From IMG/VR virus record IMGVR_UViG_3300043394_000291, positions 1 to 38,242 of that record: 38,242 nucleotides of DNA; one strand, 5' to 3'. Below, piece by piece: positions 1 through 34,506 of this stretch (its first letter is position 1; the number at the start of each line of letters is the position of its first letter). The position numbers and the translations under genes are program-made. The DNA comes from a virus (Duplodnaviria; Caudoviricetes). A model generated the notes under the pieces. That model ran no database searches, was not told the origin of the DNA, and saw nothing but the letters and a program-made list of their open reading frames with translations.

Positions 1-66
1 ACTTCTGATAAGGCATAAATACAATATTTACCCTTGTTGTTGTTTTCTTTGGTGGTGGCATTTTTT

Positions 67-345
67 TTAATTTAAGTTGAATACATAATCTAATTCTATT
101 TGTTGATACCATTGTAAAACACTTACATCAACTATTTTTTTTTCTTTTTTAATCAATGGTTTTAATTTCGACAAAGTAAACCATTTACGATTAATCCAAT
201 ATCCTAAACAATTATTATTATCTTTTAAATTTACTAAAGTTGGTAAATTAGTAATGTCAAATAATTGCTTTTTTCTAAAAGCAAATACTCTATTTTCTAA
301 CTCAAAAAAATTAGAGTAAATTATTATGTCAAGGTTTTCTTCCAT
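67..345 (-). CDS. hypothetical protein
   Basis: 92-aa ORF on the genome-wide coding strand; no recognised motif. Confidence 0.6.
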   Translation of the reverse strand: MEENLDIIIYSNFFELENRVFAFRKKQLFDITNLPTLVNLKDNNNCLGYWINRKWFTLSKLKPLIKKEKKIVDVSVLQWYQQIELDYVFNLN

Positions 346-388
346 TGTTTATAAGTGCTTATATAAGTTAGTTGCGAGTATAAAGGAG

Positions 389-774
389 TTATGCCTTATT
401 TTGAAGAACGAGACGAACCAACAGTTAAAATTCCAGCTCCAAGAACGAATCCGAAGTTATACCAACCTCCGTTATTGTTGTAAGCATAAAATGCAATATC
501 ATCAAAAAATAAGCTACCAATAAATGAAATTGGTGCAACTATTCCGTGCCATAAACCGCCCCAAAATCCATAAGGCGAACTTGTAATACAATCTTGTACG
601 TGTGGGCTTACATCAGCACAAGAAGTTAAAGAAAGAAAAACAAGGCATAACAGCCATTTGGCAAGATTGCGGGTTTGTTTTGTGTTTTGAAACATAGTTT
701 TTTAATTTAAAGATTAGTAATATTTTGCGTGTTTGGGTCTTGAATCGTCCGCAACCTCGCCAAGTGAGAGGACG
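389..774 (+). mobile_element. integron-like gene cassette 1 (lipoprotein gene + attC-like site 1)
   Basis: Starts G|TTATGCCTT (388-397); its attC-like site begins AAGGCATAAC (642-651), the exact 10-nt reverse complement. Confidence 0.75.
396..695 (-). CDS. small membrane lipoprotein (GFWxGLWHG...NxGxWYxFGF type)
   Basis: Signal peptide with lipobox-like LTSC, then hydrophobic/aromatic segments; the ATG lies inside the loop of attC-like site 1. Confidence 0.75.
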   Translation of the reverse strand: MFQNTKQTRNLAKWLLCLVFLSLTSCADVSPHVQDCITSSPYGFWGGLWHGIVAPISFIGSLFFDDIAFYAYNNNGGWYNFGFVLGAGILTVGSSRSSK

Positions 775-780
775 TTATAC
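645..780 (+). repeat. attC-like site 1
   Basis: GCATAAC (645-651), arm CATTTGGCAAGATTGCGG (655-672), loop, arm CCGCAACCTCGCCAAGTG (749-766), GTTATAC (774-780). Confidence 0.8.
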
Positions 781-1412
781 GCAAGGCTACCATTCGTTTT
801 CATATTGAGCTTTTCGGTTCAACTTTTAATAATTTTTCTGCCTCCCTCTCAATGTAAATATTAATTCTACTATCCATACTTTCAGATTGCCACCATCCCA
901 CATATTGCTTTTTCTTTCTACCAACAATAAAAGGAGTAATCCAGTCAATGAATTTATCTATCTCGCTATCGTAGTTTTTAAATTCGGTATGTAAATCAAC
1001 TACCCAATACTCCTTTTCTTGATACATCTTTCCTCCTTGAATATCTCCCCAGTTGGTAGAAAGAAAAAGCATATACCACCGTTCACATTTAAAAAATTCG
1101 TGATTAAGTTCGGGATTGAACACATCTTTGGTATCAAATAGAACCTTGTCGTGTCCTAAATCTCTTTCAATAAGCACTCTTTTTAAAATGCTCACTACAT
1201 TGTCAGGCGTATCTTTACGCAACTTAATTTTACATTGTAATTCTGTATAGTGTCCCATCGCTCAAAAATTATTAAAAGTTGTTTCGTTTTTCATATCAAC
1301 ATTCTGCCTTAATTAACCGCCCAGCGTATAACACGGTATTTGCAAAATTGCCCATAAACATTTGTGCTAAATTTGAAGTATCTGCAAGGGCAACTTCGCA
1401 AATACCCATACG
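775..1412 (+). mobile_element. integron-like gene cassette 2
   Basis: Starts G|TTATACGC (774-782); its attC-like site begins GCGTATAAC (1324-1332), the exact reverse complement. Confidence 0.75.
800..1258 (-). CDS. hypothetical protein (cassette 2 cargo)
   Basis: 152-aa ORF occupying most of the interval between two attC-like sites. Confidence 0.8.
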   Translation of the reverse strand: MGHYTELQCKIKLRKDTPDNVVSILKRVLIERDLGHDKVLFDTKDVFNPELNHEFFKCERWYMLFLSTNWGDIQGGKMYQEKEYWVVDLHTEFKNYDSEIDKFIDWITPFIVGRKKKQYVGWWQSESMDSRINIYIEREAEKLLKVEPKSSI

Positions 1413-1418
1413 TTATAA
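1326..1418 (+). repeat. attC-like site 2
   Basis: GTATAAC (1326-1332), arm GGTATTTGCAAAATTGCCC (1335-1353), arm GGGCAACTTCGCAAATACC (1388-1406), GTTATAA (1412-1418). Confidence 0.8.
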
Positions 1419-1739
1419 GCAAGCAATCCCAAAATCACGTTCAAGGATTTTAATCACATTTTTTTTATTAAGTGCTGAAATATAAACGCAGTTTTCTTTT
1501 TTGGTTACTTTCTTTTGAGCAACGATATTCCCTTTCATTGCTTCCTCAAATTTTATTGCGGGCAGTTCGTCAAATTCCGCAATTTCAATAGTTTTTAAAT
1601 TCAAATTAACTTCAAATAAAGTGTGGTTTTTTTGAGGTGTAATTTTATAATCAAAAACAGTTTGTATTTCTTGAACTTGTTGTTTTACTTGTTCAATTTT
1701 GTCTTTTTCTTGGTCTTTTTCAAAATTTGCTAATCTCAT
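1413..1739 (-). CDS. hypothetical protein (cassette 3 cargo)
   Basis: 108-aa ORF; its TAA stop is the TTA of the GTTA core. Confidence 0.8.
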   Translation of the reverse strand: MRLANFEKDQEKDKIEQVKQQVQEIQTVFDYKITPQKNHTLFEVNLNLKTIEIAEFDELPAIKFEEAMKGNIVAQKKVTKKENCVYISALNKKNVIKILERDFGIACL

Positions 1740-1877
1740 ATTTTGCCTACTTATAACAGCAATTACACGCTATTGCTACATTGTGATTAATTTAGTGTTT
1801 AGTTTGTATCTTTCAATTCCGTGTTAAACTGAAAGGTATTTTTTACTTTTACGCAACAGACGTGTAGTTGCAAACCG
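1413..1877 (+). mobile_element. integron-like gene cassette 3
   Basis: Starts G|TTATAAG (1412-1419); its attC-like site begins CTTATAAC (1750-1757), the exact reverse complement. Confidence 0.75.
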
Positions 1878-1883
1878 TTAATT
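1751..1883 (+). repeat. attC-like site 3
   Basis: TTATAAC (1751-1757), arm GCAATTACACGCTATTGC (1759-1776), internal hairpin ~1807-1838, arm GCAACAGACGTGTAGTTGC (1853-1871), GTT at 1877. Confidence 0.8.
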
Positions 1884-1889
1884 ATTTTA

Positions 1890-1923
1890 CAAATATAACA
1901 TTTATTTTGATATTAATAACAAA
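1890..1923 (-). promoter_or_regulatory. Bacteroidota-type promoter pointing into the cassette array
   Basis: TATATTTG (-7; 1897-1890) and TTTG (1923-1920), 22-bp spacer. Confidence 0.65.
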
Positions 1924-1931
1924 ATGATGTA

Positions 1932-1950
1932 GTTTATAATTAGTCTAAAT
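1932..1950. promoter_or_regulatory. 19-bp palindromic operator-like box (copy A)
   Basis: GTTTATAATTAGTCTAAAT; matches the ATTTAGA-N5-TCTAAAT pattern seen at four other promoters. Confidence 0.55.
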
Positions 1951-1978
1951 AAAGAAACCGAAGTTCGAGCTTCGGTTT
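1948..1978 (-). terminator. intrinsic terminator after the lysis cassette
   Basis: AAACCGAAG/CTTCGGTTT stem (1955-1978) followed on the minus strand by a T-rich tail. Confidence 0.75.
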
Positions 1979-2038
1979 AGTTTGTGTTAAATTTATTTTG
2001 TAATAAAGTAACGGACGGATTACAAATATAATAAAAAA

Positions 2039-2431
2039 TTACTCAATAGTAATAAAAACTTTCTCTTTTTTCAATGCTTCTTTTAATTTAGGTAAAAATT
2101 TAGACATAGCAACTCTTGAATTACCTATAAAATCAACACCTCGTGTGGTTCCTAAAAGTAAACATCCGTCGGTATTGTCTGCGGTGTTTCCCGAATGAAT
2201 ACGTACGCCTTCGTAATTTGGCACGTTTAATAATAAAGGCAAAACAACTTTAAATCTATTCGACATTGTCATTATAACCTCGTATTTTCCTTTCGGTATT
2301 GCGGTTTTACCATGTATTTTTTCAACTCGTTCAATATCTTCTAACGTGTAGCACTCGAATTTACCATTAATAGATAACTCTCCTATTGTTGATTTACTTG
2401 TTTTGTGCAGTCTTTTTAGTAGTAGTTCCAT
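2039..2431 (-). CDS. putative endolysin, DUF5675-like
   Basis: TIGELxING...CYTLED...IPxGxY...IHSGNT..TDGCLLLG motif pattern; last gene of the late block, next to holin-like genes. Confidence 0.75.
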   Translation of the reverse strand: MELLLKRLHKTSKSTIGELSINGKFECYTLEDIERVEKIHGKTAIPKGKYEVIMTMSNRFKVVLPLLLNVPNYEGVRIHSGNTADNTDGCLLLGTTRGVDFIGNSRVAMSKFLPKLKEALKKEKVFITIE

Positions 2432-2745
2432 TATTTATCTGTTATTATTTTAAAAATAGTAATTATTAACGCTCCAGCAATTCCACGCCCCCACCATTTA
2501 GCACTATCAATATCCTTTGCGTGACTTTCAGACTTAATTTGTAAACCCTCTACTTTTGATTTCACATCGTCAAGCATCGAAATAACACCTTTGTTTTTGT
2601 TTAGTTCAGAACCTCCCAAAACTATTAATATTTCTTTTTGCATTTCAGCAATATTCTTAACGTTTTCTCTTATATCTTTAATATGTAAATCACGTCTTTC
2701 GTCTTTAACTTCGAGTGCTTTCAATCTTTCGTCTGTTGTTGCCAT
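2431..2745 (-). CDS. coiled-coil protein with C-terminal TM helix (holin/antiholin-like)
   Basis: Heptad-rich N-terminus, C-terminal GIAGALIITIF; adjacent to the endolysin. Confidence 0.55.
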   Translation of the reverse strand: MATTDERLKALEVKDERRDLHIKDIRENVKNIAEMQKEILIVLGGSELNKNKGVISMLDDVKSKVEGLQIKSESHAKDIDSAKWWGRGIAGALIITIFKIITDK

Positions 2746-2754
2746 AGTAAGGTG

Positions 2755-2985
2755 TTATGGTTCTAAATTAGTATTAATATTTTCGTTTGTTTTTTGTGTT
2801 CTATAAATTGAAAAACCACCAACTCCTAAGAAACCTAAGAAAACAAATTCTTTAACTTCAAAAGTAGGTAAAAAAATTGGAATAAAAGCGTAACAAGTAG
2901 CAACAAAAAAGCTACTAAAAGTTAGTAAACGTTTTTGACTCCATTTGTCCTTATTCTTTAAAGTATCATTTATTAAACCTATCAT
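2755..2985 (-). CDS. putative holin (2 TM)
   Basis: 76 aa, WSQKR followed by two hydrophobic segments, in the lysis region. Confidence 0.6.
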   Translation of the reverse strand: MIGLINDTLKNKDKWSQKRLLTFSSFFVATCYAFIPIFLPTFEVKEFVFLGFLGVGGFSIYRTQKTNENINTNLEP

Positions 2986-3301
2986 AATTTATATTTCGCT
3001 CAATTAGTAATATAATTGGTGTTGTGATTATTAAAATGCTCCAAAACTTGTAATTAACATAATCAATAGGATAATTCAAATCGATTAATTTAAACGCTAA
3101 AAAAATAAAAGCGAATAGATAGCATTGTTTTTGGAATATGTTTAATTTACGATACATATAAAGCACTATAATAGCGGATGCAACGTAAAAAGGAGTGTCT
3201 ATACTATCTATAATTTGCCAATTGTTAGAATACCAATCAGTTTGCATTATAAAAATACAAACTAAATTATAAAGTAATATGAACGCTCCTAAATTTTTCA
3301 T
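2966..3301 (-). CDS. multi-pass membrane protein
   Basis: About 4 hydrophobic segments; start moved to ATG 3301 (MKNLG), just after the stop of the upstream small ORF. Confidence 0.65.
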   Translation of the reverse strand: MKNLGAFILLYNLVCIFIMQTDWYSNNWQIIDSIDTPFYVASAIIVLYMYRKLNIFQKQCYLFAFIFLAFKLIDLNYPIDYVNYKFWSILIITTPIILLIERNINYDRFNK

Positions 3302-3302
3302 T

Positions 3303-3431
3303 CTATTTTGGTCTGTGAGGACGTGGCGCACCGATATTTTGCACCAACACTACATCGTTTAAATCTGCATTATCTAACATTGTTTCTACTTCTTCAATGG
3401 TTTTCTTTTGTTCTTCTGTTAATTCTTTCAT
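3303..3431 (-). CDS. 42-aa peptide ending IGAPRPHRPK
   Basis: Hand-translated MKELTEEQKK...; fills the gap, below the ORF-track size range. Confidence 0.55.
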   Translation of the reverse strand: MKELTEEQKKTIEEVETMLDNADLNDVVLVQNIGAPRPHRPK

Positions 3432-3442
3432 TTTATTTAGTT

Positions 3443-3607
3443 TTAAATTTCTCTAATATCAATCCAAACATTATTCTCTAAATCTACTTTCGCAAATTCT
3501 AATTCAATAGTTGGATAAAAGTCTACTCCATTATTAGGTTTTTCAATATAAAAGTTTGTACTTAAATACATTAAATTTTCGTCGTATAAATAATATTGCT
3601 TTTCCAT
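3443..3607 (-). CDS. 54-aa protein downstream of the tail fibre gene (possible fibre-assembly protein)
   Basis: Hand-translated MEKQYYLYDEN...; starts right after the fibre stop. Confidence 0.55.
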   Translation of the reverse strand: MEKQYYLYDENLMYLSTNFYIEKPNNGVDFYPTIELEFAKVDLENNVWIDIREI

Positions 3608-3609
3608 AA

Positions 3610-5211
3610 TTAAACTATATCAGATGATGATGTTGTGCTTGATGCTCCTAATTCTATAAATCTAATAATATGATTTTCTACTATTGGTGTTGTGCTTACA
3701 TTTGTTGCAAAAGCTATAATTAAAGTACCAGCAGTAGAAGTAACTACCTCTATATTAATAGTGGCTCTAGCAAACGCTTGCGTTCCACTTGTCATTAACG
3801 CTGCCGAAATTGTGGCGCTATTGAGAGCGGTGTATGATGGTGTATTTGATGAAATTAAAGTTGCACTTTTACAAGCTAAACTTTGACCATTTACAGAGGT
3901 TATTCCAGCAGTTCCTAAAATACCAAATTGAACATAGTTAGTTGTCCCCGTTGAAAGTCCGCTTAATTGAAATTGAATTTCTATCTTATAACGAGTGTTT
4001 GCTTTCGCTGGAAAACTCCCGTTTCCACTACTTCCCGCATTAGATAGTTTTTGTAAAGCCGTTGAGCCTGTTCCGGTATAAGGACTTGATGAACTTATCC
4101 AAGACATTTTTTGTTGTTTACTATCCAATTGCCCTTGAATTGAACTTGTAGCATCTAAAAACTCATCCGTTTTAAAAGTTGCTAAGGCATCTGTAATATC
4201 AGTAATATCCGCAATACCATCATAATCTTTGTTTTGCCATTCTGCGGTATGCTCTGTATCTACATTATTTGATTTTAAAATCATTTTCTTTGTAGAACCA
4301 TTTGTTTGAGTAACCACCTCTTTTGCTTTAATAGCAAAATCCCCTAAATCAACATCAATATTAGCATTGCTTCCGTCACGTTTAAGGGCATCTAAATCTG
4401 TTGCGGTTGTTGGGATATCAGAAGTTAAAGCAATTGTACCCGAAGCATCTTGATACGTTTGCGCTCTTGTATCTGTTATCGATGTAGGTATTTGTATGGT
4501 TAATGTTTTATTAGTTGTTTTATCTAATATTTCAACATTACCATTTGAATTTATAACATATTCAAATAAATTATCTTCAATACTTAATCTATTTGTGTAA
4601 GGATTGTATTCAAATTTACTTGTAGCGCCATCAGAAATATTTATATAACTTTGATTTATAATAGAAATAGCATTTACAGCATCTATTGATAAATCCCAAA
4701 ACTCTATAAATCCAGTTGTTGAATCTATTTTTACAAATAAATCTGCACTTGCTCTAAAAATAACCTCATCAGTCGTTTCATTCCCCTCTGTTGTCACTTC
4801 TTGAAGTGTTGGGGTTGTTCCGCTACCGCCACTTGAACTAATTACATAAGGGTCGGCTAAAGTTCCAGTTCCAGTGATTGTTACGTTTGTACCCTCTGAA
4901 ATTAAACCAGTGATACTATCAGCATTACCAGCACCTAAGTAAGCAGTATAGCCTAAAACAACTAATCTCGTTCTTAATTGTTCAGCGGTTAAGAATGTTT
5001 CTTCAACACTTGAGGCGGTTTCGTCAATAACAATAATATCTAAAACCGATAAGGATATTTGCGGAATGTTTGCACCATTTCGTAACACTATTACAAATGT
5101 GTTTAAAACATCGTCTAAAACTACTTCAAAATCTGAAATAGAAACATTTTTAGCACCATCATTAAAGACGTGCCAAAAATTATTACTACCTTTTTTTATT
5201 ATCTTAAACAT
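3610..5211 (-). CDS. tail fibre / receptor-binding protein
   Basis: 533 aa, S/T/G-rich and modular (ITGTGTLADPY, PTLQEVT, GTIALTSDI linkers); distal end of the tail block. Confidence 0.7.
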   Translation of the reverse strand: MFKIIKKGSNNFWHVFNDGAKNVSISDFEVVLDDVLNTFVIVLRNGANIPQISLSVLDIIVIDETASSVEETFLTAEQLRTRLVVLGYTAYLGAGNADSITGLISEGTNVTITGTGTLADPYVISSSGGSGTTPTLQEVTTEGNETTDEVIFRASADLFVKIDSTTGFIEFWDLSIDAVNAISIINQSYINISDGATSKFEYNPYTNRLSIEDNLFEYVINSNGNVEILDKTTNKTLTIQIPTSITDTRAQTYQDASGTIALTSDIPTTATDLDALKRDGSNANIDVDLGDFAIKAKEVVTQTNGSTKKMILKSNNVDTEHTAEWQNKDYDGIADITDITDALATFKTDEFLDATSSIQGQLDSKQQKMSWISSSSPYTGTGSTALQKLSNAGSSGNGSFPAKANTRYKIEIQFQLSGLSTGTTNYVQFGILGTAGITSVNGQSLACKSATLISSNTPSYTALNSATISAALMTSGTQAFARATINIEVVTSTAGTLIIAFATNVSTTPIVENHIIRFIELGASSTTSSSDIV

Positions 5212-5215
5212 AAAA

Positions 5216-5935
5216 TTACATATTTGAGTGAGTTACTTTTTTCCAATCTGTACCATCGTAAAAACAAAGCACGTGTAAAGTAGTGTTATAAACAACTAAT
5301 CCCTCTGTTGGTGTTAATGCGTTTATTTCGGTTGTTGTTAATTCTGTAAATCCTAATTCTGTTGCGTTTTGTGGCAATACTGGTGCGATATAAGGCGTAG
5401 GAACTCCAACTCCTTTATTGTCTTGTTCTAATTTTAAACCATCAATTAAAATAGTTTTTTCACTAAAAGCACTACCATCGTTAGCTTTTAAGATAAATTT
5501 AAAAGTAATATCTTGACCAACAAATGTTGAGAATATTTGTGCAAATCTTTTCCATTTATCCGTTGCGGTGTATGGTTGTCCTACTACATCGATTGTAAAA
5601 TCATAAGTTTCAGCTAAAACACCACCAAAATACATTTCAATAGCACAATCAACATTCTCGGTATTATCTGCATTTACAAATAAAGAAAAAACCGCTTTAC
5701 CATTAACTAAAGGAACTATATCTACATTTGTTATCCAAAATGAATAATCAGTATTTTGATAATCTAAATTAATTATCTCTAAACTTCTACTTCCACCATA
5801 ACGAATAGTATTGTAATCAGTCGTACCCGTTCCACTTACATTTGTAAAAGTACTATCTACATCAAAACTATACTCATTTGGTAGTAAATTATCAGATATA
5901 TGTATGTTATTGTTTATATAAATTAAATTTGCCAT
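5216..5935 (-). CDS. tail-associated protein with probable carbohydrate-binding (jelly-roll) domain
   Basis: GxRSL...WKRF...IDGLKLE pattern; C-terminal GLVVYNTT..LCFYDGTDW motif typical of fibre proteins. Confidence 0.55.
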   Translation of the reverse strand: MANLIYINNNIHISDNLLPNEYSFDVDSTFTNVSGTGTTDYNTIRYGGSRSLEIINLDYQNTDYSFWITNVDIVPLVNGKAVFSLFVNADNTENVDCAIEMYFGGVLAETYDFTIDVVGQPYTATDKWKRFAQIFSTFVGQDITFKFILKANDGSAFSEKTILIDGLKLEQDNKGVGVPTPYIAPVLPQNATELGFTELTTTEINALTPTEGLVVYNTTLHVLCFYDGTDWKKVTHSNM

Positions 5936-5940
5936 AATAT

Positions 5941-6375
5941 TTAGTCGTTTACTTGGTAAGTTGTATTAATTTGTAATGTTGCTCCGCTTGAAATTGAATC
6001 TAATAAATAGATTGTATTTGTCGAAAATGATATTCTACAATTTGCATTACTTGGAAACAATACACCGCTTGAAATGGTATCTTGACCAGTTTTGGAATAT
6101 AATTCTGTATCGGTTTGAGTAAAACAAATTTCATTGCCTCTTATAGTTGCGTAATCGTTTCTAATAAAACCAATACAAGTAACCATATTACCTTTTTTGT
6201 TAAATTTAAGGTTGTAAGTATATTGATTTGCTCCAGCAGTATTGCTTTTTGTAATCGTTGTTGAAAAGAATGTATTTATAAGTTCTAACATCGAATTACG
6301 ATGCTTTGTTACGTCAATAACTGCGGTTATAAAACCATTTATTGTTGAAATTAAACTTGCTTTAGTTGTTGCCAT
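5941..6375 (-). CDS. minor tail/baseplate protein
   Basis: Position in the tail block; beta-rich, KKGNMV motif. Confidence 0.5.
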   Translation of the reverse strand: MATTKASLISTINGFITAVIDVTKHRNSMLELINTFFSTTITKSNTAGANQYTYNLKFNKKGNMVTCIGFIRNDYATIRGNEICFTQTDTELYSKTGQDTISSGVLFPSNANCRISFSTNTIYLLDSISSGATLQINTTYQVND

Positions 6376-6379
6376 ATTT

Positions 6380-6697
6380 TTAAATTAAATAATCATTACT
6401 ATATTGAGAGCTATTGTATTGCCCTGATGCTATTTCAAAAGTCCATTTTGTTGAATCGGTTATTCCATCATATATTTCTGAACCACTTTTAAAAAGTCCG
6501 TAATCAAACAGAATAAAATAACTTCCATTATCGGGAAATAAATTAGAAACATCGATAGTAAAAGTATTACTACTTACTGCAATTTCAGAAACTCCAAAAG
6601 TTAAAAACAAAGTATTATCTTTGTAAACCTTCAAAGTTCCACTTCCTAACTCAATAGGTTTATTAAATGTTCCTGATATTTCGTTAGGGAAGTTCAT
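6380..6697 (-). CDS. Ig-like (Big_5-type) structural protein
   Basis: TFNKPI..GSGTLKVY...YxGITD..KWTF resembles a bacterial Ig-like domain lacking its first strand. Confidence 0.55.
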   Translation of the reverse strand: MNFPNEISGTFNKPIELGSGTLKVYKDNTLFLTFGVSEIAVSSNTFTIDVSNLFPDNGSYFILFDYGLFKSGSEIYDGITDSTKWTFEIASGQYNSSQYSNDYLI

Positions 6698-7338
6698 TAA
6701 AGAGTTATTTCTAAATATGTTAAATATAAATCTAATGTGCCATTCCCGCCAGATGGGTTTGCTGTAGTTGCGCCTAAAACTATAGGTAAATTTTCGTAAG
6801 TCAAACCGCTTGTGGAAGTAGAATAATTCAAATTATTTAATCCCTCTGCATTATCAGCACTTGTTATAACTGCTCCAAAAGCTGAAAAACCAAAACTAAT
6901 TGTGCCTAATCCAATTCTAAAAAGTCCACTTGTAGTATAAGCACTGCTTACGTGTGTGTATTTTTGGAATAGAAATTGCGGAACTAATAATTTTCCAGTT
7001 ACCGATGGAACTAATTCAATAGGTGTCGTATATAAGTTTAAAATTTGTGCTGAACTTAATGATACTTTTATTTTTTTCATAACAGAAACGCCCACATTTG
7101 CATCAACATAAGTTTTAACCGCTTTTACACTTGGATATTTAGTATCACTTGCGCCATCTGTAGTTACGTTTGTAGATTTATTTGTTAAAACCTCCGCTAA
7201 AGCTATTTGCTCTGTTGCATAATCTACAATATCTTTCATTCTACCACCTACCTCTGCTGGTGTAATAGCGAAATCAACTGTTTCATTAGTAATTTGCGTA
7301 TCTATTAACGCTTTTAATGTTGTTGGATTAATTGACAT
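6697..7338 (-). CDS. virion structural protein (fibre-like)
   Basis: Contains NKST....SDTKYPSVKAVKTYVD, a motif common in phage fibre proteins. Confidence 0.6.
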   Translation of the reverse strand: MSINPTTLKALIDTQITNETVDFAITPAEVGGRMKDIVDYATEQIALAEVLTNKSTNVTTDGASDTKYPSVKAVKTYVDANVGVSVMKKIKVSLSSAQILNLYTTPIELVPSVTGKLLVPQFLFQKYTHVSSAYTTSGLFRIGLGTISFGFSAFGAVITSADNAEGLNNLNYSTSTSGLTYENLPIVLGATTANPSGGNGTLDLYLTYLEITL

Positions 7339-7350
7339 ATTTTTATTTTT

Positions 7351-8286
7351 TTAGTTACCGAATTTATTATTAAATGTATTATTAAAAGCTTTATTTGTTA
7401 TTATTGGATTGCTTCCAAATTGTAAGCTAAATTTATTATTAAATGTTCTATTATAATTTGGTAATTGCGATGTATAAACCCCACTCGGTGTGAATGTTAC
7501 TAAAGTAAAAGTTGGTAATATCTGCAAATTCCAATTTTTTAATTGATTTAAGGGGTTTACTAAAAATTCAGCACTTAGAAAGTTAGTAGTTCCGACACGC
7601 TCATCTGCTTTATATTCTGAAATTGTTGAGCGTACATTATTAATATAAACCACTTCGCTACATAACATATCGGTTACACTATCATTAACCAAAAAATCTA
7701 ATTGGTCAATCAAATATTTTTGTAAATAAGTCGGTGTATTTTGGTATGTTGTTTGAAATCCTTGAGTAGTTGTGTAGCTTTTTAAATCGAGTTTATTTTG
7801 TGGCGTATGGTAATAGCAGTTGTTTAATCTAATTGATTTTTTTACTACATCACCATTGTTAAAATAATCTACTCTTGTTGTAGTTTTGCTATAATAATCA
7901 GTTATTATAAAACTATTTGAGTAGTAAATATTACCATTAATTAAGTCGGTAATTTTAAGATAAAGCGGTGTAGTGTAGAAGTTTTCATTTATTAAACCAA
8001 ACTCAAATCTTATTTGTTCAACTCCCTGACTATTAATAAATGATGTATAAGCAAAGTTATTGTCAATATTTTTTACAACATTTCCACAACTATTTATTAA
8101 ATCGATTTGAATACCACCAGCGAAAGCTATATCAACATCGCTATTAGTTTCTTGTACAAAAGTTTCGTTCGGTAATTGAACTATAAAGCCATCGTAAAGT
8201 AGAGTAGCGACGTTTGGGTTTGCGCTACTCTTTGCCTTTACGAAGTCGTTTAAGTAAAGTTTAATAAAACTTTTGTCTATATTCAT
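7351..8286 (-). CDS. tail/baseplate protein
   Basis: Position; C-terminal FNNxF repeats. Confidence 0.55.
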   Translation of the reverse strand: MNIDKSFIKLYLNDFVKAKSSANPNVATLLYDGFIVQLPNETFVQETNSDVDIAFAGGIQIDLINSCGNVVKNIDNNFAYTSFINSQGVEQIRFEFGLINENFYTTPLYLKITDLINGNIYYSNSFIITDYYSKTTTRVDYFNNGDVVKKSIRLNNCYYHTPQNKLDLKSYTTTQGFQTTYQNTPTYLQKYLIDQLDFLVNDSVTDMLCSEVVYINNVRSTISEYKADERVGTTNFLSAEFLVNPLNQLKNWNLQILPTFTLVTFTPSGVYTSQLPNYNRTFNNKFSLQFGSNPIITNKAFNNTFNNKFGN

Positions 8287-8287
8287 A

Positions 8288-11017
8288 TTATAATGCTATT
8301 AATGCATTTTGTAAATCAAGTTTGGTATTATAACTAATTCCATCCAAAATTACAAAATTATATTTATAAAAGTTACAAATCGGAATACTATTTTTATCAA
8401 ACACTTTAAAGAAGTCATTTTCAAATATCCACCAATTAGAAACACCGCCTAAATCGTAATCAGTTCCGTCGACATTTAATATACCATTTGCAAAAGTTAA
8501 GGTTAAATAAGGTGTATAATATTTTTCTTCTAATGTAACATTAAATTCTTTTGTAAATGGATTGTAAGCGTTTTTCTGAATGTAACCTTTAATAACATTA
8601 CCTTGCATATCATAACAACGTACAAAGCCTCTATCAGTTGCGTAATCATTCATATAATCAACTACGCTTTCATAACTTGCTACTAAACTTAAATTATGAA
8701 CGTTTGCGTTAATAATTGGCTCATCTAAATCGGTATAATTTACGTTTGCGTTTTCCGTTATTGGTGCGCTTTCTCCAACTAATTGACTTGTAAAAGCTCC
8801 GTTATTTTTAAAGAACGTGTTTTTTAATAAAGTTTTATTGTAAAGCATTGCAGTAGCTATCCACGAACCCCAACGCAAAATATTTCTTTTGATTGAGTAG
8901 TTTATACTTGAAAGCGTGTTGTTTAATGGTAATATAACGCCTTGTGTTAATCTTGTTTGATAAGCTACATTTGAGTAAAAGTATTTAACTTTAATATATC
9001 CATCGCCTGAAAATGATGGTGTAAAACCTATCGGTTGCAAAGTTAAAACACTATTTGTAATAGCTAAAACGCTATAGTTTCCAACATTAACACCACTCGT
9101 AATTTCAAAATTATCGCCTACATTAAAGCCTAAAATAGTCCAATTAATCACAACGCTTCCGCTATCTCCGTTGCTATCTCGGTTTAATATTTCTAAATTA
9201 CTACCAACTATTCGCATTAATAACCTTGCTCCAAATGTTCCAAAGCTATTAGGTTGCAACGATACATATTCCTCGATGTAAACTTTGTCATCTTCGTTTG
9301 TCGACGTTGTAGGTTGTTTAATTTCTAAATCGATTATCGATTGAATAGCATACGCATCTCTGACAAAATTATTATTAATTTCTTTTGTGTTGTCAGCTAA
9401 TAAGTTTGGTAATAACCATTCACTTTCTGTATGAATAGAGTTACTTGTACCTATTGCAGTACGTTCTTGCTCATAAGTTTTATAACTATATTTAAATGAC
9501 TTCAACATCGCTCTGTCGTTGTAATATCTTTGGTAATCTTTACTTGGTATTATCTGAAATACTCCAATTTCGCTATTTGTATAATATTTATCATAACTAT
9601 CGATAAATATTTCATTTCGATTTATTTCGTAATCAGCGCAAACTTCTTCAACACTTCCGAAAACATCATTTGGTTTAACATTGAAATAATCAGTTTTTTG
9701 TGATACCATTCGACGATTGAAAACTACATTGTTGTAATATTCGCCACCGACATCGAACTTAGGTGCGTCAATCGGTAAATTACTAATATACTTTGAACTT
9801 TGTTTAATTAAATCAATCCAATTAACCGCTTTAATAACTGAATCAATAGCAGTTGAAATTGCAGTTATTTCAATAGTCATTCCATTTATTAAAGTTTCAA
9901 CTCTTGCATTAGCTAATGAATGGTCGGTATTGCTAAAAGTAGCAGTACAATCATTTGCAAAGAAAATATAAACTCTTTTACTTCTTTCAATAAAAGGAAC
10001 TGAAATATTTAAATAACTTGGAACATTTGTGTAAACCGAATCAAAATCTGTAATATCTGCATAATCTTTACTCCATAACTCATAAGTGTCAAAACCCTCT
10101 GTTGCTAAATCAACACCACCTATTAGCATTAATAAACGTGCTTTTCCATTTGCAGTAACAACACTTGTTCCAAAAAAATCATATTTAACCGCCCTTACTT
10201 GTGCTACAATATTAGAAAAGTTAAAAGTTAAATTTGATAAATCATTTTTTGCTTCTAAAAACTGAAAAGAACCGCTATCTACTGGGATAGGTTGTAAAAC
10301 TCCGTTATTATCAAAAGCTAAACCTTTAGTAAAAGTTGGACTTAAAAAAGATAAAGTATTATCTATTCCGTATTGCTCAACTACATTTGAATTATTAGCT
10401 AATACATTAAAACCCTCAATGCTTCTTGATGTTTCATAGGCTTGCGCGGTTACTGGAGAATTATTGCCTCTAAACTTACTTATTTGTGTTACCGGTGTAG
10501 CACGTCTTAAATAGTTAAAAGTCGGTAATGGTGTAATAGTATTGCCTTTAAAATCTTTGTCACTAAAAGCGTTAAATATTTCAGTTCCTTGACGTTTATA
10601 ATCCATTATAATACCTATGTCGATAAGTTTACAACTTACATAGTTTTTACCATCAGTAATATCTTTTTCGCTAAAATCTAATTGCATTTTAGGAAAATAA
10701 ACACTATCTTTTGATAAATGATAATAGGCTTCTAATTCAAATCCTTTTTCTTCTAATCCGTATAAAAGCCATTCTAAACCATAATCTAAATATTCGGTAA
10801 CATCGCCAAATTGATTTTTAACTTGTGGTGTAGTTACTAAATTTCCAACTGCATTAACAAACTCAATCTTATCTAATGCGCCGAAATTTATTGAACGTGC
10901 AAAACGTTTGCTTTCTTGCTCTGTTTCAAATTGCAAACCATCAAATCCAATAGGCTCACAAATCTCATACATTAAAGGCGCACCAATTCCAACTATTTCT
11001 AATTCGTGTTTATACAT
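8288..11017 (-). CDS. large tail-tip/baseplate hub protein
   Basis: 909 aa directly after the tape measure gene; PIGFD near the N-terminus. Confidence 0.6.
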   Translation of the reverse strand: MYKHELEIVGIGAPLMYEICEPIGFDGLQFETEQESKRFARSINFGALDKIEFVNAVGNLVTTPQVKNQFGDVTEYLDYGLEWLLYGLEEKGFELEAYYHLSKDSVYFPKMQLDFSEKDITDGKNYVSCKLIDIGIIMDYKRQGTEIFNAFSDKDFKGNTITPLPTFNYLRRATPVTQISKFRGNNSPVTAQAYETSRSIEGFNVLANNSNVVEQYGIDNTLSFLSPTFTKGLAFDNNGVLQPIPVDSGSFQFLEAKNDLSNLTFNFSNIVAQVRAVKYDFFGTSVVTANGKARLLMLIGGVDLATEGFDTYELWSKDYADITDFDSVYTNVPSYLNISVPFIERSKRVYIFFANDCTATFSNTDHSLANARVETLINGMTIEITAISTAIDSVIKAVNWIDLIKQSSKYISNLPIDAPKFDVGGEYYNNVVFNRRMVSQKTDYFNVKPNDVFGSVEEVCADYEINRNEIFIDSYDKYYTNSEIGVFQIIPSKDYQRYYNDRAMLKSFKYSYKTYEQERTAIGTSNSIHTESEWLLPNLLADNTKEINNNFVRDAYAIQSIIDLEIKQPTTSTNEDDKVYIEEYVSLQPNSFGTFGARLLMRIVGSNLEILNRDSNGDSGSVVINWTILGFNVGDNFEITSGVNVGNYSVLAITNSVLTLQPIGFTPSFSGDGYIKVKYFYSNVAYQTRLTQGVILPLNNTLSSINYSIKRNILRWGSWIATAMLYNKTLLKNTFFKNNGAFTSQLVGESAPITENANVNYTDLDEPIINANVHNLSLVASYESVVDYMNDYATDRGFVRCYDMQGNVIKGYIQKNAYNPFTKEFNVTLEEKYYTPYLTLTFANGILNVDGTDYDLGGVSNWWIFENDFFKVFDKNSIPICNFYKYNFVILDGISYNTKLDLQNALIAL

Positions 11018-23758: not shown

Positions 23759-23950
23759 TCATAATTCTATTTTTAATTTATCGTACTCAAATTTTTTTAT
23801 TTCAAGTTTAATCATAAACGATTTTAAACGCTCGTAATTGATTGTTTTTGATTTTCTAAATGATATTACCGAACTTGTAGAAACGTTTAAAATTTGCCCT
23901 AATTTGTAGTTTGTGAAAGGTGTTAAGTTGAATAGTGCGTTGTATATCAT
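23759..23950 (-). CDS. small HTH-like DNA-binding protein
   Basis: TNYKLGQILNVSTSSV resembles an XRE/Cro helix-turn-helix. Confidence 0.5.
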   Translation of the reverse strand: MIYNALFNLTPFTNYKLGQILNVSTSSVISFRKSKTINYERLKSFMIKLEIKKFEYDKLKIEL

Positions 23951-24150
23951 AACTTCTCAATTTCTTGTTTAACTTCTTGCCAATAATCATAGCTATTTTT
24001 ATGGGTAAATATTGTTAACAATATCTCATCAACTACTATTAATGCAAACTTTCTATTTATTTCAAAAGTTTCATCGTCCATTCCTGAAATACTTAATAAA
24101 TCTGGTGCAAATTTCATAAATATTTCAGATGCTTTTTCTGTTGCAGTCAT
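23947..24150 (-). CDS. hypothetical protein, paralog of 34288-34506
   Basis: MTxxEKA...ALIxVDEI...WQEVKxEIEKL. Confidence 0.7.
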   Translation of the reverse strand: MTATEKASEIFMKFAPDLLSISGMDDETFEINRKFALIVVDEILLTIFTHKNSYDYWQEVKQEIEKL

Positions 24151-24240: not shown

Positions 24241-24861
24241 CTAAAATAAAGTTTGTTGTATTGGTACATTTGATAAATCGCTCCATTGTTTAGCCATAGC
24301 CTCTGAAATACCTGTAAAAGTTTTACTTCTTTTTGTTGAATCTCCGAAACTTTCTGCCATCCATTTACTCATTTTTTTACCGCTTTTAAAAGTTATAAAT
24401 TCTCCTTTACTTACTATTTTTGTAGGTTTTAAAAAAGGTATATTTTTATACCATAAGCAAGTAGTTTTTTGAAATTCATCTCCAAAGTAATAAGGCTGTA
24501 TAATTTGGTCGGGTTCTCTCCAAACTTTTGACATTATACAAATTGGATTTTCAATTACAATATGATTTATTGGTGCATTAGCTAATTTTAAAAAAAACTC
24601 AATCGCTTCTTTTTGCCTACCATCTTTTATTTTTTCTTTAAAATGCCTTGCTCCACTAACTGCTAAATGCGTACAAGGTGGGTGCGCAATCATTAAATCA
24701 TATTTACCGCTATACGCTTCTTTTATTGCATCTCCTTGTATATGCCATTGTGGATGTCCTCCAGTACATTCTTTTATATCGCAACTATATGCTTCTATTC
24801 CTAATTTTCTAAAAGCTATCGTTGTGTGTTGGCTTTCTTCACACGCTATTAATACTTTCAT
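24241..24861 (-). CDS. phage DNA cytosine-C5 methyltransferase-like protein
   Basis: VLIACEES (motif I variant), AHPPCT (catalytic PC), IENP, RSKTF; short form. Confidence 0.8.
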   Translation of the reverse strand: MKVLIACEESQHTTIAFRKLGIEAYSCDIKECTGGHPQWHIQGDAIKEAYSGKYDLMIAHPPCTHLAVSGARHFKEKIKDGRQKEAIEFFLKLANAPINHIVIENPICIMSKVWREPDQIIQPYYFGDEFQKTTCLWYKNIPFLKPTKIVSKGEFITFKSGKKMSKWMAESFGDSTKRSKTFTGISEAMAKQWSDLSNVPIQQTLF

Positions 24862-25456: not shown

Positions 25457-26224
25457 TTAAACTATTATAAAATTAGTATTATTCTTTATTTTATTATTTA
25501 ATTTAGCAAATAAAGTCACATAATTTATTCCACTTATTTTTGATGTTTCTTTTATAGAATAATAAAAAATACCATTGCTTAAATCTAAAACAATAACTCC
25601 TTTTTTATTTTTAGGTTTAGTTCTGTTTTGTTGTATTTTTAAAATAGTTTCAATACTATGTTTTCTACCAAACATTGCGTTTTTTTCTCCTTTTGACTTT
25701 AAAGACATTTTTTCTTTAGTTAAATTTGATGCTTTTTTACCAAAATTATGATTTAAAACACCTTTTTGTCTTTCTGATAAAAGTTTTTTTGTATTTTTAT
25801 TATGTTTTTTACCTTTAAAAGATATTATAAAATCTCTTTTACTTACTGCAATACCTATGTTTTTTCTATGCGACTCAGAAAAAAATTTATTTTTAGCAGA
25901 CTCTTTCATTTTTTCTTTAGTTTCTTTAGAAAAAATTCTTTTCTTTTCATCTGTATTTGTTAAAAAACAATTTAATCCTTTATTTAAAACATCATAAAAT
26001 TCTTGATAAAACCTTTCGCGTTCATTTAATAAATTAATTTCACATTCTTCTATTACTTCAAAAGTATGATTGGAAACTCCATACTTTAAAAATGAATTAT
26101 ACAAGGCTTTTTGTTCAGATACATTTTGCAAGTTTTTATATTGTTTAAATCGTTTTTCAATATTAATACTTTGACCTACATAAACTCTATTTGTTGGGGA
26201 AGTAATTTTATATATACCTATCAT
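25457..26224 (-). CDS. GIY-YIG homing endonuclease with NUMOD3-like repeats
   Basis: GIYKIT..RVYVGQS..KRF..ERE..GLN; repeated S.ETK.KM and FGKKHS; ATG 26224 preferred to the ORF-track start inside the leader. Confidence 0.92.
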   Translation of the reverse strand: MIGIYKITSPTNRVYVGQSINIEKRFKQYKNLQNVSEQKALYNSFLKYGVSNHTFEVIEECEINLLNERERFYQEFYDVLNKGLNCFLTNTDEKKRIFSKETKEKMKESAKNKFFSESHRKNIGIAVSKRDFIISFKGKKHNKNTKKLLSERQKGVLNHNFGKKASNLTKEKMSLKSKGEKNAMFGRKHSIETILKIQQNRTKPKNKKGVIVLDLSNGIFYYSIKETSKISGINYVTLFAKLNNKIKNNTNFIIV

Positions 26225-26320
26225 AAATGTAAAAACCAACACGTCAAGAGGTAGTCGGCTCTATCAGTGTTGGAATTTTATAATGTTTTAATACTGCGAC
26301 TACTCAGTGACGCAAATATA
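26225..26320 (-). promoter_or_regulatory. promoter plus structured kissing-loop leader (copy A)
   Basis: TATATTTG, small hairpin, large hairpin plus T tract; loops GTAGTCG/CGACTAC are complementary. Confidence 0.75.
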
Positions 26321-26339: not shown

Positions 26340-27587
26340 TTATATTTTTACATTAAAATCTTTACGAAAACAATTTAAAGTATAATCTTTTTTATCTAAA
26401 ACTCTTTTGTATATTGAATTTTCAATCCCTCCGTCGGCAAATATCCAATAAATATCATTTGATTTTCGTTCCATTGTCGTCAATCGGTCTTTTGCTTGGA
26501 AATAACTCACTGCTGAAAATTGTAGATTTAAAAATATAAGATAATCCGCTTTTGCTAAACTAATGCCCTCACGCCCTGAAACAATCTGTAATGATATATT
26601 TTTACTACTTGAATTAAACTCATCTAAATCGGTTGTTAAATCTTTTCCAAATGTTTGTTTTAACATTTCAAGTTCCGCAACAAAATTATAAAATATTGCT
26701 ATCTTTTTACCTTTGAACTTTTCCTTTATAAACTCAGCTTTTGAATTATCAATTATTTGAGTAGAACCATCCTCATACTTAATAGTTCCACTAAATAATT
26801 GATGTATCTTTTGTTGAAGTTTTACACCAGTATCGGCTATTATTTGTTTACCGCTTGACTTTGATGTAACCACTAAATCATTAATTAACTTTTCAGTTAT
26901 CGCATAAGTTATAGGTTTCATCTTAACCTTTAAAATATTTTCTTTTACATCGGTTGTAAATCCAGCTTGTTCTTGTGTAAATGTTAGAATATAATACCTT
27001 ATATGATGCCAAAAATCATTTTTTCTTGCATCTGAATAGTCTTTAACTTGTGCATAACCTAAATACTTTAATTTTATATTTACATATTCATTTGCCCACT
27101 TATAAAAATTAGCATATTCTTTAAATGGACTATGATTTGAAAGTGTAAACAAATGATAATATTGGCTATAACTTTCGGGTGTTGGTGTTCCACTTAACAT
27201 AATCATAGGAATATCTCCAAACCTTGACTTTATATCTTTATGATATTTTGATGGTTTAGGATAAGAAGTATACCCGTGAACCTCATCAATTATAACTACA
27301 TCGAAATCGTTTGTTTCAATCTTATGTAAACTTTCTCTGTTTATAATAGTCAAATCAAATTTATTTAAATAACCGAAATCCCAATAGTCTTGTTCAATAC
27401 TTGAAAACGCTTTTATTTTTGTAATAAACAAAACTCTTTTAGCATTTACTTTTTTACACGTTTCTAAAGCGGTTGCAGTCTTACCGCAACGAACCTCCAT
27501 AAATAAACAAACAAGTTTTTTTCTTTTCAATATTTCAGTAGCATCTTCTGAAATTCTAACTTGATAACCCCTTAAAGATTTAGACAT
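26340..27587 (-). CDS. SF2 (SNF2-like) DNA helicase
   Basis: LRGYQ, CGKT, DEVH, SGTP, GREGISL, QAKDR. Confidence 0.92.
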   Translation of the reverse strand: MSKSLRGYQVRISEDATEILKRKKLVCLFMEVRCGKTATALETCKKVNAKRVLFITKIKAFSSIEQDYWDFGYLNKFDLTIINRESLHKIETNDFDVVIIDEVHGYTSYPKPSKYHKDIKSRFGDIPMIMLSGTPTPESYSQYYHLFTLSNHSPFKEYANFYKWANEYVNIKLKYLGYAQVKDYSDARKNDFWHHIRYYILTFTQEQAGFTTDVKENILKVKMKPITYAITEKLINDLVVTSKSSGKQIIADTGVKLQQKIHQLFSGTIKYEDGSTQIIDNSKAEFIKEKFKGKKIAIFYNFVAELEMLKQTFGKDLTTDLDEFNSSSKNISLQIVSGREGISLAKADYLIFLNLQFSAVSYFQAKDRLTTMERKSNDIYWIFADGGIENSIYKRVLDKKDYTLNCFRKDFNVKI

Positions 27588-28086
27588 AATATTTATTATT
27601 TAAAATATTTAAAATAACATTATTAGTAACATTGTAGTTTAAAGATAATTCTTTTACATTACCACTTCTGCCTTTAACACCTATTGATTTTATGTAATTA
27701 GCTTGTTCACTTGTAAGTTTTCTAATTGGATTTATTTTGTTTAAAACATCATAAGAATGTTTTTCATTTTCAGAATGTGAAACCCATTCTAAATTAACTG
27801 AACGATTATCTGTTTTAATTCCATTAATATGGTTAACACATTTTTTATCATTAAAATTAATATGAAAACACATAGCAACTAATCTATGTACTTGAAATCT
27901 TTTTATAATTTTTCCTTTTGATAAAGATACTCTTTTATATCCTTTAACATTTTCTTGTTTTAAAACACGACCTTTGTATTTAAAAATTTTACCTGATTGA
28001 TGTACTAAACTATCTAATCTTTTTACGTTTCCATAATTTGAAACTTTATAATTTTCAAAGTCTTTAATTGTTCTCCAAACTTCCAT
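27580..28086 (-). CDS. NUMOD4-HNH homing endonuclease
   Basis: EVWRTI..Y.VSNYG.V, VHRLVA, VNHINGIKTDNR..NLEW; ATG 28086 preferred. Confidence 0.93.
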   Translation of the reverse strand: MEVWRTIKDFENYKVSNYGNVKRLDSLVHQSGKIFKYKGRVLKQENVKGYKRVSLSKGKIIKRFQVHRLVAMCFHINFNDKKCVNHINGIKTDNRSVNLEWVSHSENEKHSYDVLNKINPIRKLTSEQANYIKSIGVKGRSGNVKELSLNYNVTNNVILNILNNKYYV

Positions 28087-28184
28087 AAATGTAAAAACCA
28101 ACGCTTCAAAAGGTGGACGTCTTTATCTGCGTTGGAATTTTATAATGTTTTTAATTCGGCGTCCACTCCGATAAAACAAATATA
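28087..28184 (-). promoter_or_regulatory. promoter plus structured kissing-loop leader (copy B)
   Basis: Homolog of 26225-26320 with compensatory changes; loops GTGGACG/CGTCCAC. Confidence 0.75.
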
Positions 28185-34093: not shown

Positions 34094-34291
34094 TTAGTCA
34101 TAATTCATTTTGCTTTCAACTATAATAGTTTCATCATTTTTTTCCCACTCCCTAATTATTAATTCAAGAGTATTTTTATTTATACCTAAATTAAAAGCAA
34201 TTGTTTGAACATATTTCCATTTATGAATAAAATAATATTCTAATATTAATATTTTTGAACGTGAATAATTTAGTCTTTTATCGTATTTCAT
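34094..34291 (-). CDS. small HTH-like protein
   Basis: VQTIAFNLGINKNTL resembles a helix-turn-helix. Confidence 0.45.
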   Translation of the reverse strand: MKYDKRLNYSRSKILILEYYFIHKWKYVQTIAFNLGINKNTLELIIREWEKNDETIIVESKMNYD

Positions 34292-34506
34292 AACTTCTCA
34301 ATTTCTTTTTTAACTTCTTGCCAAAAATTCAAGTCTTTACCATAGCATTCATATTTACTACATTCTTTTTTTTCCTTTATTATCTCATCAACCGCTATTA
34401 ATGCGCATTGTTTAGATTGTTGTTTATAATTTCTATAAGTGCTATCAAAATTAAATTCATCAGCATATTTATTAAATAACTCTTTTGCTTTTTCTTTTGG
34501 TGTCAT
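34288..34506 (-). CDS. hypothetical protein, paralog of 23947-24150
   Basis: MTPKEKA...CALIAVDEI...WQEVKKEIEKL. Confidence 0.7.
   Translation of the reverse strand: MTPKEKAKELFNKYADEFNFDSTYRNYKQQSKQCALIAVDEIIKEKKECSKYECYGKDLNFWQEVKKEIEKL

Follow-up and report, generated by a model that had tools for sequence, protein, structure and literature searches.

An integron-like array of antisense gene cassettes in a phage genome without a recognisable recombinase

Introduction

How could a phage exchange accessory genes as modular cassettes when its own genome carries no recognisable recombinase? The question is raised by the virus record IMGVR_UViG_3300043394_000291 (Duplodnaviria; Caudoviricetes), a linear sequence of 38,242 bases with a CheckV completeness estimate of 100%, which was analysed whole and is here called the window. 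Near its beginning lie three one-gene units separated by long imperfect hairpins that resemble the attC sites of integrons, and an earlier note, made from the letters alone, had read them as an integron-like cassette array probably served by a host tyrosine recombinase in trans. The region is almost certainly a cassette array. We have strong confidence that its chemistry is that of single-stranded hairpins and good confidence that it is still served in trans, and we consider probable the explanation as a whole, in which a fixed dock at position 388, followed by three antisense, one-gene, hairpin-ended cassettes, is loaded by an Xer-like recombinase supplied from outside the genome. The integron-like reading of the earlier note stands as to footprint and function, but not as a canonical attC/IntI system, since there is neither a conserved extrahelical base nor an IntI insertion; the array works like an integron, and its membership fails on the enzyme insertion, the extrahelical bases and the gene polarity. 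The antisense genes, the attI-like dock at 388 and a 92-aa gene in the integrase slot are features beyond those of the earlier note.

Organization of the array

GTTA cores are found at positions 388, 774, 1412 and 1877 and TAAC boxes at 648, 1329 and 1754, with units of 386, 638 and 465 bp that hold one open reading frame (ORF) apiece. The AAC box of each site is the reverse complement of the GTT box of the previous one: AAGGCATAAC (642-651) of GTTATGCCTT (388-397), GCGTATAAC (1324-1332) of GTTATACGC (774-782), and CTTATAAC (1750-1757) of GTTATAAG (1412-1419). Beyond the common GTTA, 15 variable letters match by this rule, for which a crude, post hoc estimate gives a chance of 4.5e-10. The units, cores, box rule and lengths were borne out just as the earlier note had placed them; the 18-19-bp hairpin arms that it described are present in sites 1 and 2, but site 3 has an 11-bp ungapped run and a 1-nt bulge.

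The three array ORFs are all on the minus strand, antisense to the polarity of the sites, and no hairpin precedes the core at 388. The features are listed below, with the crossover point within the core written G/TT and with scores from R1, a covariance model of the site family whose training set includes sites 1 and 3 of the window.

67..345, minus strand: ORF0, 92 aa, a small, mostly beta-strand protein that fills the recombinase slot of related phages
328..395, plus strand: attI-like dock without a hairpin; putative crossover G/TT at 388/389, 43 bp from the ORF0 start
389..774, plus strand: cassette 1, 386 bp, whole in locus L092
396..695, minus strand: ORF1, 99 aa, predicted lipoprotein with a signal-like N-terminus ending in LTSC, judged by eye; phrog_30702 (unknown function), E 4e-38
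642..783, plus strand: attC-like site 1, AAC box 642-651, core G/TT at 774/775; R1 95.7 bits (training member)
775..1412, plus strand: cassette 2, 638 bp, delimited by its boxes and not found whole elsewhere
800..1258, minus strand: ORF2, 152 aa, phage protein of unknown function; phrog_4334, E 2e-19; atlas matches are hypothetical proteins
1324..1419, plus strand: attC-like site 2, short class, core G/TT at 1412/1413; R1 58.3 bits, E 2.8e-9, not a training member
1413..1877, plus strand: cassette 3, 465 bp, whole in locus L075
1413..1739, minus strand: ORF3, 108 aa, phage protein of unknown function; phrog_15043, E 4e-44
1750..1883, plus strand: attC-like site 3, core G/TT at 1877/1878; R1 95.1 bits (training member)
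1878..1957, plus strand: fixed distal flank, putative right half of the original empty dock; 90.2% identity in L005, 91.8% in L019, same junction letters in L006

From the whole cassettes in L092 and L075, the unit is defined as TT, antisense gene, hairpin and G. A minus-strand reading of the array, in which each cassette would end in the hairpin after its stop codon, was ruled out because these whole cassettes have the hairpin at the 5′ end of the gene and the dock has none. The start codon and first 15 codons of ORF1 are encoded within hairpin 1, and the stop codon of ORF3 falls in the GTT box of cassette 3. Cassette 2 contains perfect inverted repeats at 906-925/1052-1071 (20 nt, 126 nt apart) and 820-837/1264-1281 (18 nt, 426 nt apart).

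Cassette content of related phages

Relatives were fetched through the two genes that flank the array. Locus L005 is 93.7% identical to the window over 3-399 and 90.2% over 1876-1957, and between the same junctions it holds five cassettes, none of which is in the window; L006 is 93.1% identical over 3-391 and has the same distal junction, with two cassettes, again none of the window's. The identity of L007 is 93.3% over 3-391, and L019, with other cassettes, is 91.8% identical over 1873-1957 and has the same distal junction. Content among relatives changes at G/TT, as the earlier note had predicted: homology is lost at 388 and regained at 1877, with different cassettes between.

Complete copies of cassettes 1 and 3 are present in L092 (96.2% over 388-779) and L075 (89.4% over 1410-1880), respectively, each with other neighbours on both sides, and cassette 1 is also found in the recombinase-bearing phage L093 (81.4% over 388-758). 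The cassette of L068 that holds an 83% homolog of the cassette 2 ORF has other boxes. Site 3 matches a site in phage vB_FspS_snusmum9-1 at 94.6% and one in lillamy9-1 at 90.1%, beside other genes. The gene of Flavobacterium phage FpV4 that matches ORF3 at 76% in DNA has no sites around it. The seven closest cargo homologs (at least 83% identity) all sit in such cassettes, again as the earlier note would have it; below 83% identity, two of 49 loci do so, with different boxes. The cargo would thus consist of ordinary phage genes that were captured as cassettes more than once.

The hairpin sites

Folding of the whole sites gave z scores of -1.2, -3.4 and -1.4 on the bottom strand and +0.6, -2.7 and -0.6 on the top strand (sites 1-3). 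As these are unremarkable for sites 1 and 3, the hairpins are supported by covariation in the family and not by the energy of single sites. When the cassette circles are rebuilt, the outer stem of each of the three sites lengthens and the bottom strand folds better (-19.7, -22.9 and -18.7 against -16.4, -20.3 and -13.1 kcal/mol).

The covariation set comprised 40 bottom-strand sites of the long class. Their 19-pair stem has two-sided changes in 17 of the 19 pairs, and 94.5% of its cells are paired, as against 35-45% when the arms are slid; none of 500 shuffles paired as highly, in a test that sequence kinship inflates. Two stem positions hold G.T in 39 and 38 of the 40 sites, which would be A.C on the top strand. 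The bottom strand is the more stable in 91 of 111 phage sites and 88 of 100 bacterial sites. The computed evidence, namely the covariation and the G.T pairs on one strand, agrees with the bottom-strand folding of attC sites.

Next to the core, the GTT side of the loop is longer by 2-5 bases. In integrons, extrahelical bases are conserved on the AAC-side arm of attC, according to passages of PMC3053210 and PMC4792948; the 40 aligned sites have no bulge column. An extra base on that arm was seen in 7 of 135 phage and 10 of 106 bacterial sites, counts biased by a site finder that scores ungapped arms, and few bacterial sites would have been missed by it because 86 of 91 consecutive sites link.

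R1 finds sites 1-3 and nothing else in the 38,242 bases (sites 1 and 3 being training members). Among 33 lysin-gene loci it matches only L041, which has an array and was a source of the training set; since it scores the sites of phages Freya and P12002L poorly, it undercounts divergent members. An exact-repeat search missed most hairpins, with only site 2 among the 25 longest pairs, and the exact site-1 pattern occurs in GTDB at one locus, as a degenerate lone site. In phage arrays 69 of 88 adjacent site pairs match the previous box at 8/8 letters, versus four of 88 for their own box, in a set biased by the queries used. As in integrons, the boxes are complementary in the circular form and the crossover falls at G/TT. 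Integron cassette genes are sense to the top strand; here they are antisense in 3/3 units of the window and in 67 of the 69 linked phage units, and 23 of these 67 start inside the hairpin by the longest-ORF rule.

Two readings of the hairpins compete with single-strand chemistry. The same cassette system could recombine as ordinary double-stranded Xer-type sites, the symmetry reflecting two protein-binding arms, and it is true that the enzymes align with XerA without an insertion and that the sites have no conserved extrahelical base. The arms, however, vary freely yet keep pairing across 60-190 bases, with G.T on one strand only, while double-stranded binding sites would conserve letters and not pairing; we regard this reading as quite improbable. 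Scarcely credible is the other, in which the hairpins would act in RNA, for regulation or processing, or be copies of a dispersed repeat, and common phage shuffling would account for the gene mosaic. It would fit a better-folding strand that is the phage coding strand and the many ORFs that start in hairpins, but it leaves the link of AAC to the previous GTT box and the G/TT boundaries unexplained; chromosomal sites fold better on the same strand though it is non-coding there, and Rfam gave no match in the window.

The dock and ORF0

The putative dock has a second GTTAGT at 367-372 and GTCAAGG at 328-334, and across the ORF0-homolog loci its letters are conserved to the left of the G and variable to its right; homology to L005, L006 and L007 stops at 399, 391 and 391. 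On this comparative evidence it resembles the attI of integrons, a non-hairpin site with G/TT where the first cassette begins. It aligns with the docks beside the recombinases of L204, L041, Freya and Ingeline, so that ORF0 occupies the recombinase slot.

For ORF0, 289 homologs were found. The complement of the first AAC box stands at the matching offset in 20 of 27 ORF0-homolog loci, mostly 43-44 bp from the start codon; four of the other seven have GTT there but the first site was missed by the finder, and three have less than 300 bp of flank. PF00589 is absent from all 27 of these records, eight of which are rated at least 90% complete, and was found in two of the 37 records searched overall. 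The ORF0-dock module is old, with homologs down to 37% identity.

Tyrosine recombinases were found neither among the 56 ORFs of the window (PHROGs, Pfam), nor by a six-frame PF00589 search of the window, nor there by an unfiltered search with a purpose-built recombinase profile (best E 0.78). In G504, a colinear relative with terminal repeats, the positions equivalent to the window's two ends are about 520 bp apart; a 178-aa gene fills this interval, which is shorter than the about 800 bp of the shortest recombinase gene seen. The absence of a recognisable integrase from the 38 kb, noted earlier, was upheld by four search routes. A recombinase gene beside attI, as in integrons, is lacking in the window genome and present in L093/L204, L041, Freya and eight chromosomal arrays.

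The model of ORF0 is mostly beta-strand (pLDDT 84). One of its equal-best structural matches, to the N-terminal domain of I-HmuI (1-64; Z 3.1, rmsd 3.4, 58 aligned), does not rise above noise; an atlas NUMOD4 cluster (0.76) is a lead only, and Foldseek gave E 0.16-0.5 to HNH endonucleases. No match was obtained in Pfam (including PF07463), PHROG or NCBIfam, and the PDB Foldseek search was empty at E 0.001. These leads hint at a faint resemblance to DNA-binding domains of the NUMOD4 type. The structure model and the recombinase profile search led us to reject a reading of ORF0 as a recombinase fragment. No fused, longer form appeared among 43 profile matches save low-scoring repeats, in a search not aimed at longer homologs, and ORF0 was not found in 401 Bacteroidota genomes, searched without a positive control. 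Other docks have different small genes in its slot, so that its role as a required cofactor is doubtful and it is probably not one. We take these genes, labelled by eye, to be ribbon-helix-helix-like and GIY-YIG-like.

Other recombinase-less loci were observed. In a 143-kb phage (L013/L133), an ORF0 dock is followed by at least 17 sites and PF00589 genes are absent, and L014 has at 9759-10562 a second dock with a different small beta-rich gene. The cultured Flavobacterium LMO9 phages snusmum9-1 and lillamy9-1 (L001/L002, about 2000-9000) carry long arrays that belong to this site family but lack a recombinase; their content differs and includes DNA methyltransferases, and a 65-aa gene stands in the recombinase slot.

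A lost recombinase might account for such a genome: the enzyme of an ancestor would have built the array and been replaced by ORF0, and since then arrays would have changed only when phages that co-infect a cell underwent homologous or illegitimate recombination. The layout is repeated in recombinase-bearing phages, where in L041 it even adjoins the DUF5675 gene as it does in the window; cassette 1 is shared with one of these phages (L093), and the reads show no activity. But the ORF0-dock module is old and 0/27 of its records have PF00589, yet first cassettes differ exactly at G/TT despite 93% identical flanks; moreover, all three sites are intact, and their arms differ in sequence, which offers little homology for swapping. 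We therefore find a frozen array unlikely, and prefer one that is still loaded in trans.

Recombinases of phage and chromosomal arrays

The candidates for an enzyme in trans are found in two places. Phage recombinases of 267-276 aa lie in the ORF0 slot of L093/L204, L041 and Freya, and those of L204 and Freya, which were aligned, are 30-44% identical to chromosomal ones. Isolates 1, 5, 6, 8 and 10 of Polaribacter phage Freya are 99-100% identical where aligned and have a common dock 47 bp from a 271-aa recombinase, with four different first cassettes right after G/TT; at the dock Freya_6 has 472 bp more than Freya_5 (loci L193, which is Freya_10, 46210-48920 and 1-4962; L194; L197-L202). The word 'integron' does not appear in the main text of the Freya isolation paper (PMC8776804), in the portion covered.

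Among chromosomes, R1 matches were present in 92 of 121 genomes sampled from Bacteroidia, the class to which the Saprospirales record G001 belongs; at most 27 candidates were scored per genome, and the tally includes the unpublished G089, from which no other result derives. In 18 stretches picked for dense R1 matches, the previous-box rule holds at 8/8 letters in 86 of 91 ORF-bearing intervals, versus five of 91 for the own box, and the longest ORF is sense in 86 of 95 intervals, as in integrons. Eight recombinase genes head arrays in these stretches, each pointing toward the array with the first box 27-104 bp past its stop. The array-linked enzymes carry SAM_4 and PF00589 (4/4 tested) and are colinear with XerA, without the IntI-specific insertion (I2); against the IntI model TIGR02249, all four score 188-203 bits versus a cut-off of 265, with a match split around the insertion, and residues 177-212 of L204 span 179-262 of IntI4, about 48 residues short at the insertion. 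The joint lack of the insertion and of extrahelical bases fits their known partnership, as set out in passages of PMC3053210 and PMC4792948.

As the source of the enzyme, the earlier note had favoured the host. This gains from the Xer-like gene that heads arrays of the same family in Bacteroidia chromosomes, but a co-infecting phage is an equally open source. Locus L176 (5021-6750) has three antisense, phage-like cassettes, one of them RNase H-like (phrog_2259, E 1.5e-56), within a chromosomal array that is sense elsewhere, a sign that phage-type cassettes may be accepted by the host enzyme.

The array could also be a canonical host-derived cluster of attC sites lacking an integrase (CALIN; by the IntegronFinder definition, at least two attC model matches with no intI nearby, of which the window has the absence of intI), served by a true IntI. 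G/TT cores, AAC boxes and bottom-strand bias are as in attC, and CALINs have been reported in phages, including Polaribacter phage P12002L (portions of PMC9892861). We hold this to be very improbable: besides the low scores and missing insertion of the adjacent enzymes, no IntI over the cut-off was present in 5/5 Bacteroidia genomes tried, the cargo is antisense and of phage type, and P12002L_attC1, the one family hairpin tested with IntI1, gave no verified recombinant (PMC9892861, in part). On our own reading of P12002L (L196, 29175-30057), the published attC2 (29175-29238) would be the dock of a cassette that ends in attC1; the two have a common GTTAGGCAC box, with an antisense methyltransferase between. 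Such a dock/hairpin pairing would explain the reported divergent directions and the failure of IntI1 on attC1.

Some further loci depart from these patterns. Phage Ingeline_1 (L195, 9210-10771) has a second, 263-aa integrase with a dock-like G/TT 45 bp upstream and small genes pointing toward it, and neither R1 nor the site finder gave a hairpin there. The G121 chromosome has five equal-scoring copies of another tyrosine recombinase gene (C1 13071, 3517767, 4305213, 4338592 and 4372698), several inside a cassette region and probably a mobile element, and also two array-type recombinases (57978 and 4402740). L188 (G008) has sites on both strands of one stretch, unlike the one-directional arrays elsewhere.

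Predicted transcription of the array

Two further features lie at the distal end.

1890..1922, minus strand: predicted promoter of the Bacteroidota sigma-A type (TTG-N22-TATATTTG) at the distal end, directed into the array; kept in L005, L006 and L019
1955..1978, both strands: terminator-like hairpin between the DUF5675 gene (2039-2431, PF18925) and the array

The promoter match, made to the TAnnTTTG consensus given in a portion of PMC9723704, is loose and one of 19 such in the genome; terminator-like hairpins numbered three, versus 1.2 +/- 1.0 in shuffles. The predicted promoter would read cassettes 3, 2 and 1 and then ORF0, with the newest cassette farthest, the reverse of the logic of Pc, the promoter at the attI end from which integron cassettes are read; here the genes are antisense and the transcription side is predicted. 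RNA contigs covered only 2012-2334 of the window.

Proposed mechanism

In the mechanism we propose, the bottom strand of a cassette circle would fold and re-form an outer stem of 9-12 bp, since the two boxes of the circle are complementary. The recombinase would cut at the G/TT core and join it to the double-stranded dock. Since extrahelical bases and the IntI insertion are both missing, the choice of strand and the barrier to a second exchange would come from the lopsided loop beside the core (about 1 versus 5 bases, and a near-invariant G.T pair), and the recombination junction would be resolved when the DNA replicates. New cassettes would enter at the dock, making cassette 1 the newest. The phage would read the array from a far-end promoter, so that each hairpin precedes its gene and can supply its start codon. 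ORF0 would not be the catalyst but a small DNA-binding protein that accompanies the dock as passenger or regulator.

Several observations weigh against this explanation. Cassette context is missing at 47 of the 56 cargo-homolog loci, which include the same phage from several samples. No skipped or circular form of the array was seen in the contigs of four runs, and the only excision-type joint listed comes from a contig of another sample, with the sequence between unknown, and none from the window phage. The distal flank gave five viral and 14 metagenome matches, mostly due to chance, and none of these was an empty dock. The chromosomal docks are like the phage dock only near the core, and the Freya differences could in principle be assembly errors. 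To these belong the unremarkable folding of sites 1 and 3, the bias of the site finder, the noise level of the ORF0 fold match and the loose promoter. What points to insertion and excision by an integrase at these sites is comparative.

Relation to known systems

With integrons the array has in common the G/TT crossover, AAC and GTT boxes that match in the circle, the bottom-strand hairpin, and tandem one-gene cassettes behind a non-hairpin dock beside a tyrosine recombinase. It differs in an enzyme without the IntI insertion, in a lopsided loop and G.T pairs instead of conserved extrahelical bases, in a chromosomal recombinase gene that points toward the array, in antisense phage genes whose predicted transcription begins at the far end, and in a window genome where a 92-aa gene stands in the slot of the recombinase.

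The closest description is that of Qi et al. 2023 (PMC9892861; statements limited to the portions compared), who reported attC-like clusters without integrase in virulent phages including P12002L, with no verified IntI1 recombinant for attC1 and recombination of attC2. P12002L attC1 has the architecture of the window's site family; the sites are treated there as ordinary attC, their divergent directions being noted, and those portions contain no antisense polarity, dock or Bacteroidota enzyme. The open-licence PMC and bioRxiv literature searched gave no description of the site family, of antisense phage arrays or of the enzyme. CTX-phi and other Xer-exploiting elements, as presented in part of PMC4792948, are also integrase-less and use a host Xer-type enzyme on a folded single strand without extrahelical bases; here, by contrast, many small cassettes would enter a phage dock, and the likely enzyme is an array-linked recombinase and not XerCD at dif. 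Portions of PMC8138268 describe an integron-like subgroup of simple tyrosine recombinases and call the insertion essential for integron function, whereas insertion-less members head cassette arrays here.

In the portions of these surveys that were compared, one complete integron is given for Bacteroidetes, in Salinibacter ruber (PMC9024848), no Bacteroidetes model is among the eleven of PMC8352920, and Bacteroidota are among the phyla with integrons in PMC8618304. The near-absence in PMC9024848 stands against a site family that matches 92 of the 121 sampled Bacteroidia genomes. We lean, if only slightly, to the view that a large integron-like system, overlooked by standard tools, is common to Bacteroidota and their phages, with insertion-less Xer-like enzymes and bulge-less hairpins, a living model of the state before I2, in which phages keep a dock without a recombinase, make common phage genes into back-to-front cassettes that have the gene start in their own hairpin, and trade them with host arrays. 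If the enzyme works as proposed, it would bear on the chicken-and-egg origin of the I2 domain and extrahelical bases, and on cassette genesis, which has no reliable model according to part of PMC4792948. The same phage gene families occur as plain genes and as differently boxed cassettes, and so offer before-and-after pairs. Phages would gain precise modular swapping of accessory genes without carrying the enzyme; DNA methyltransferases are frequent in related arrays. Cultured phage-host pairs exist (Freya with Polaribacter HaHaR_3_91; snusmum and lillamy with Flavobacterium LMO9), and the Freya isolates, with whole-cassette differences exactly at the dock, are a ready-made experimental system.

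Genome setting

The long ORFs of the window are all on the minus strand and include terminase, portal, capsid, tape measure, helicase and methyltransferase genes (PHROGs, Pfam). Among public runs, the window phage is best matched by two freshwater metagenome runs, both from one sample and possibly the source of the record; runs with a small share were left aside for habitat. The host is likely of Flavobacterium type, as judged from sequence likeness, because site 3 resembles DNA of snusmum9-1 and ORF3 a gene of FpV4, both Flavobacterium phages. The window also contains two phrog_21441 paralogs (23947-24150 and 34288-34506), three homing endonuclease-like genes, two GIY-YIG and one NUMOD4-HNH (25457-26242, 27580-28101 and 35857-36276), and two DNA methyltransferase genes outside the array (24241-24861 and 36569-37315).

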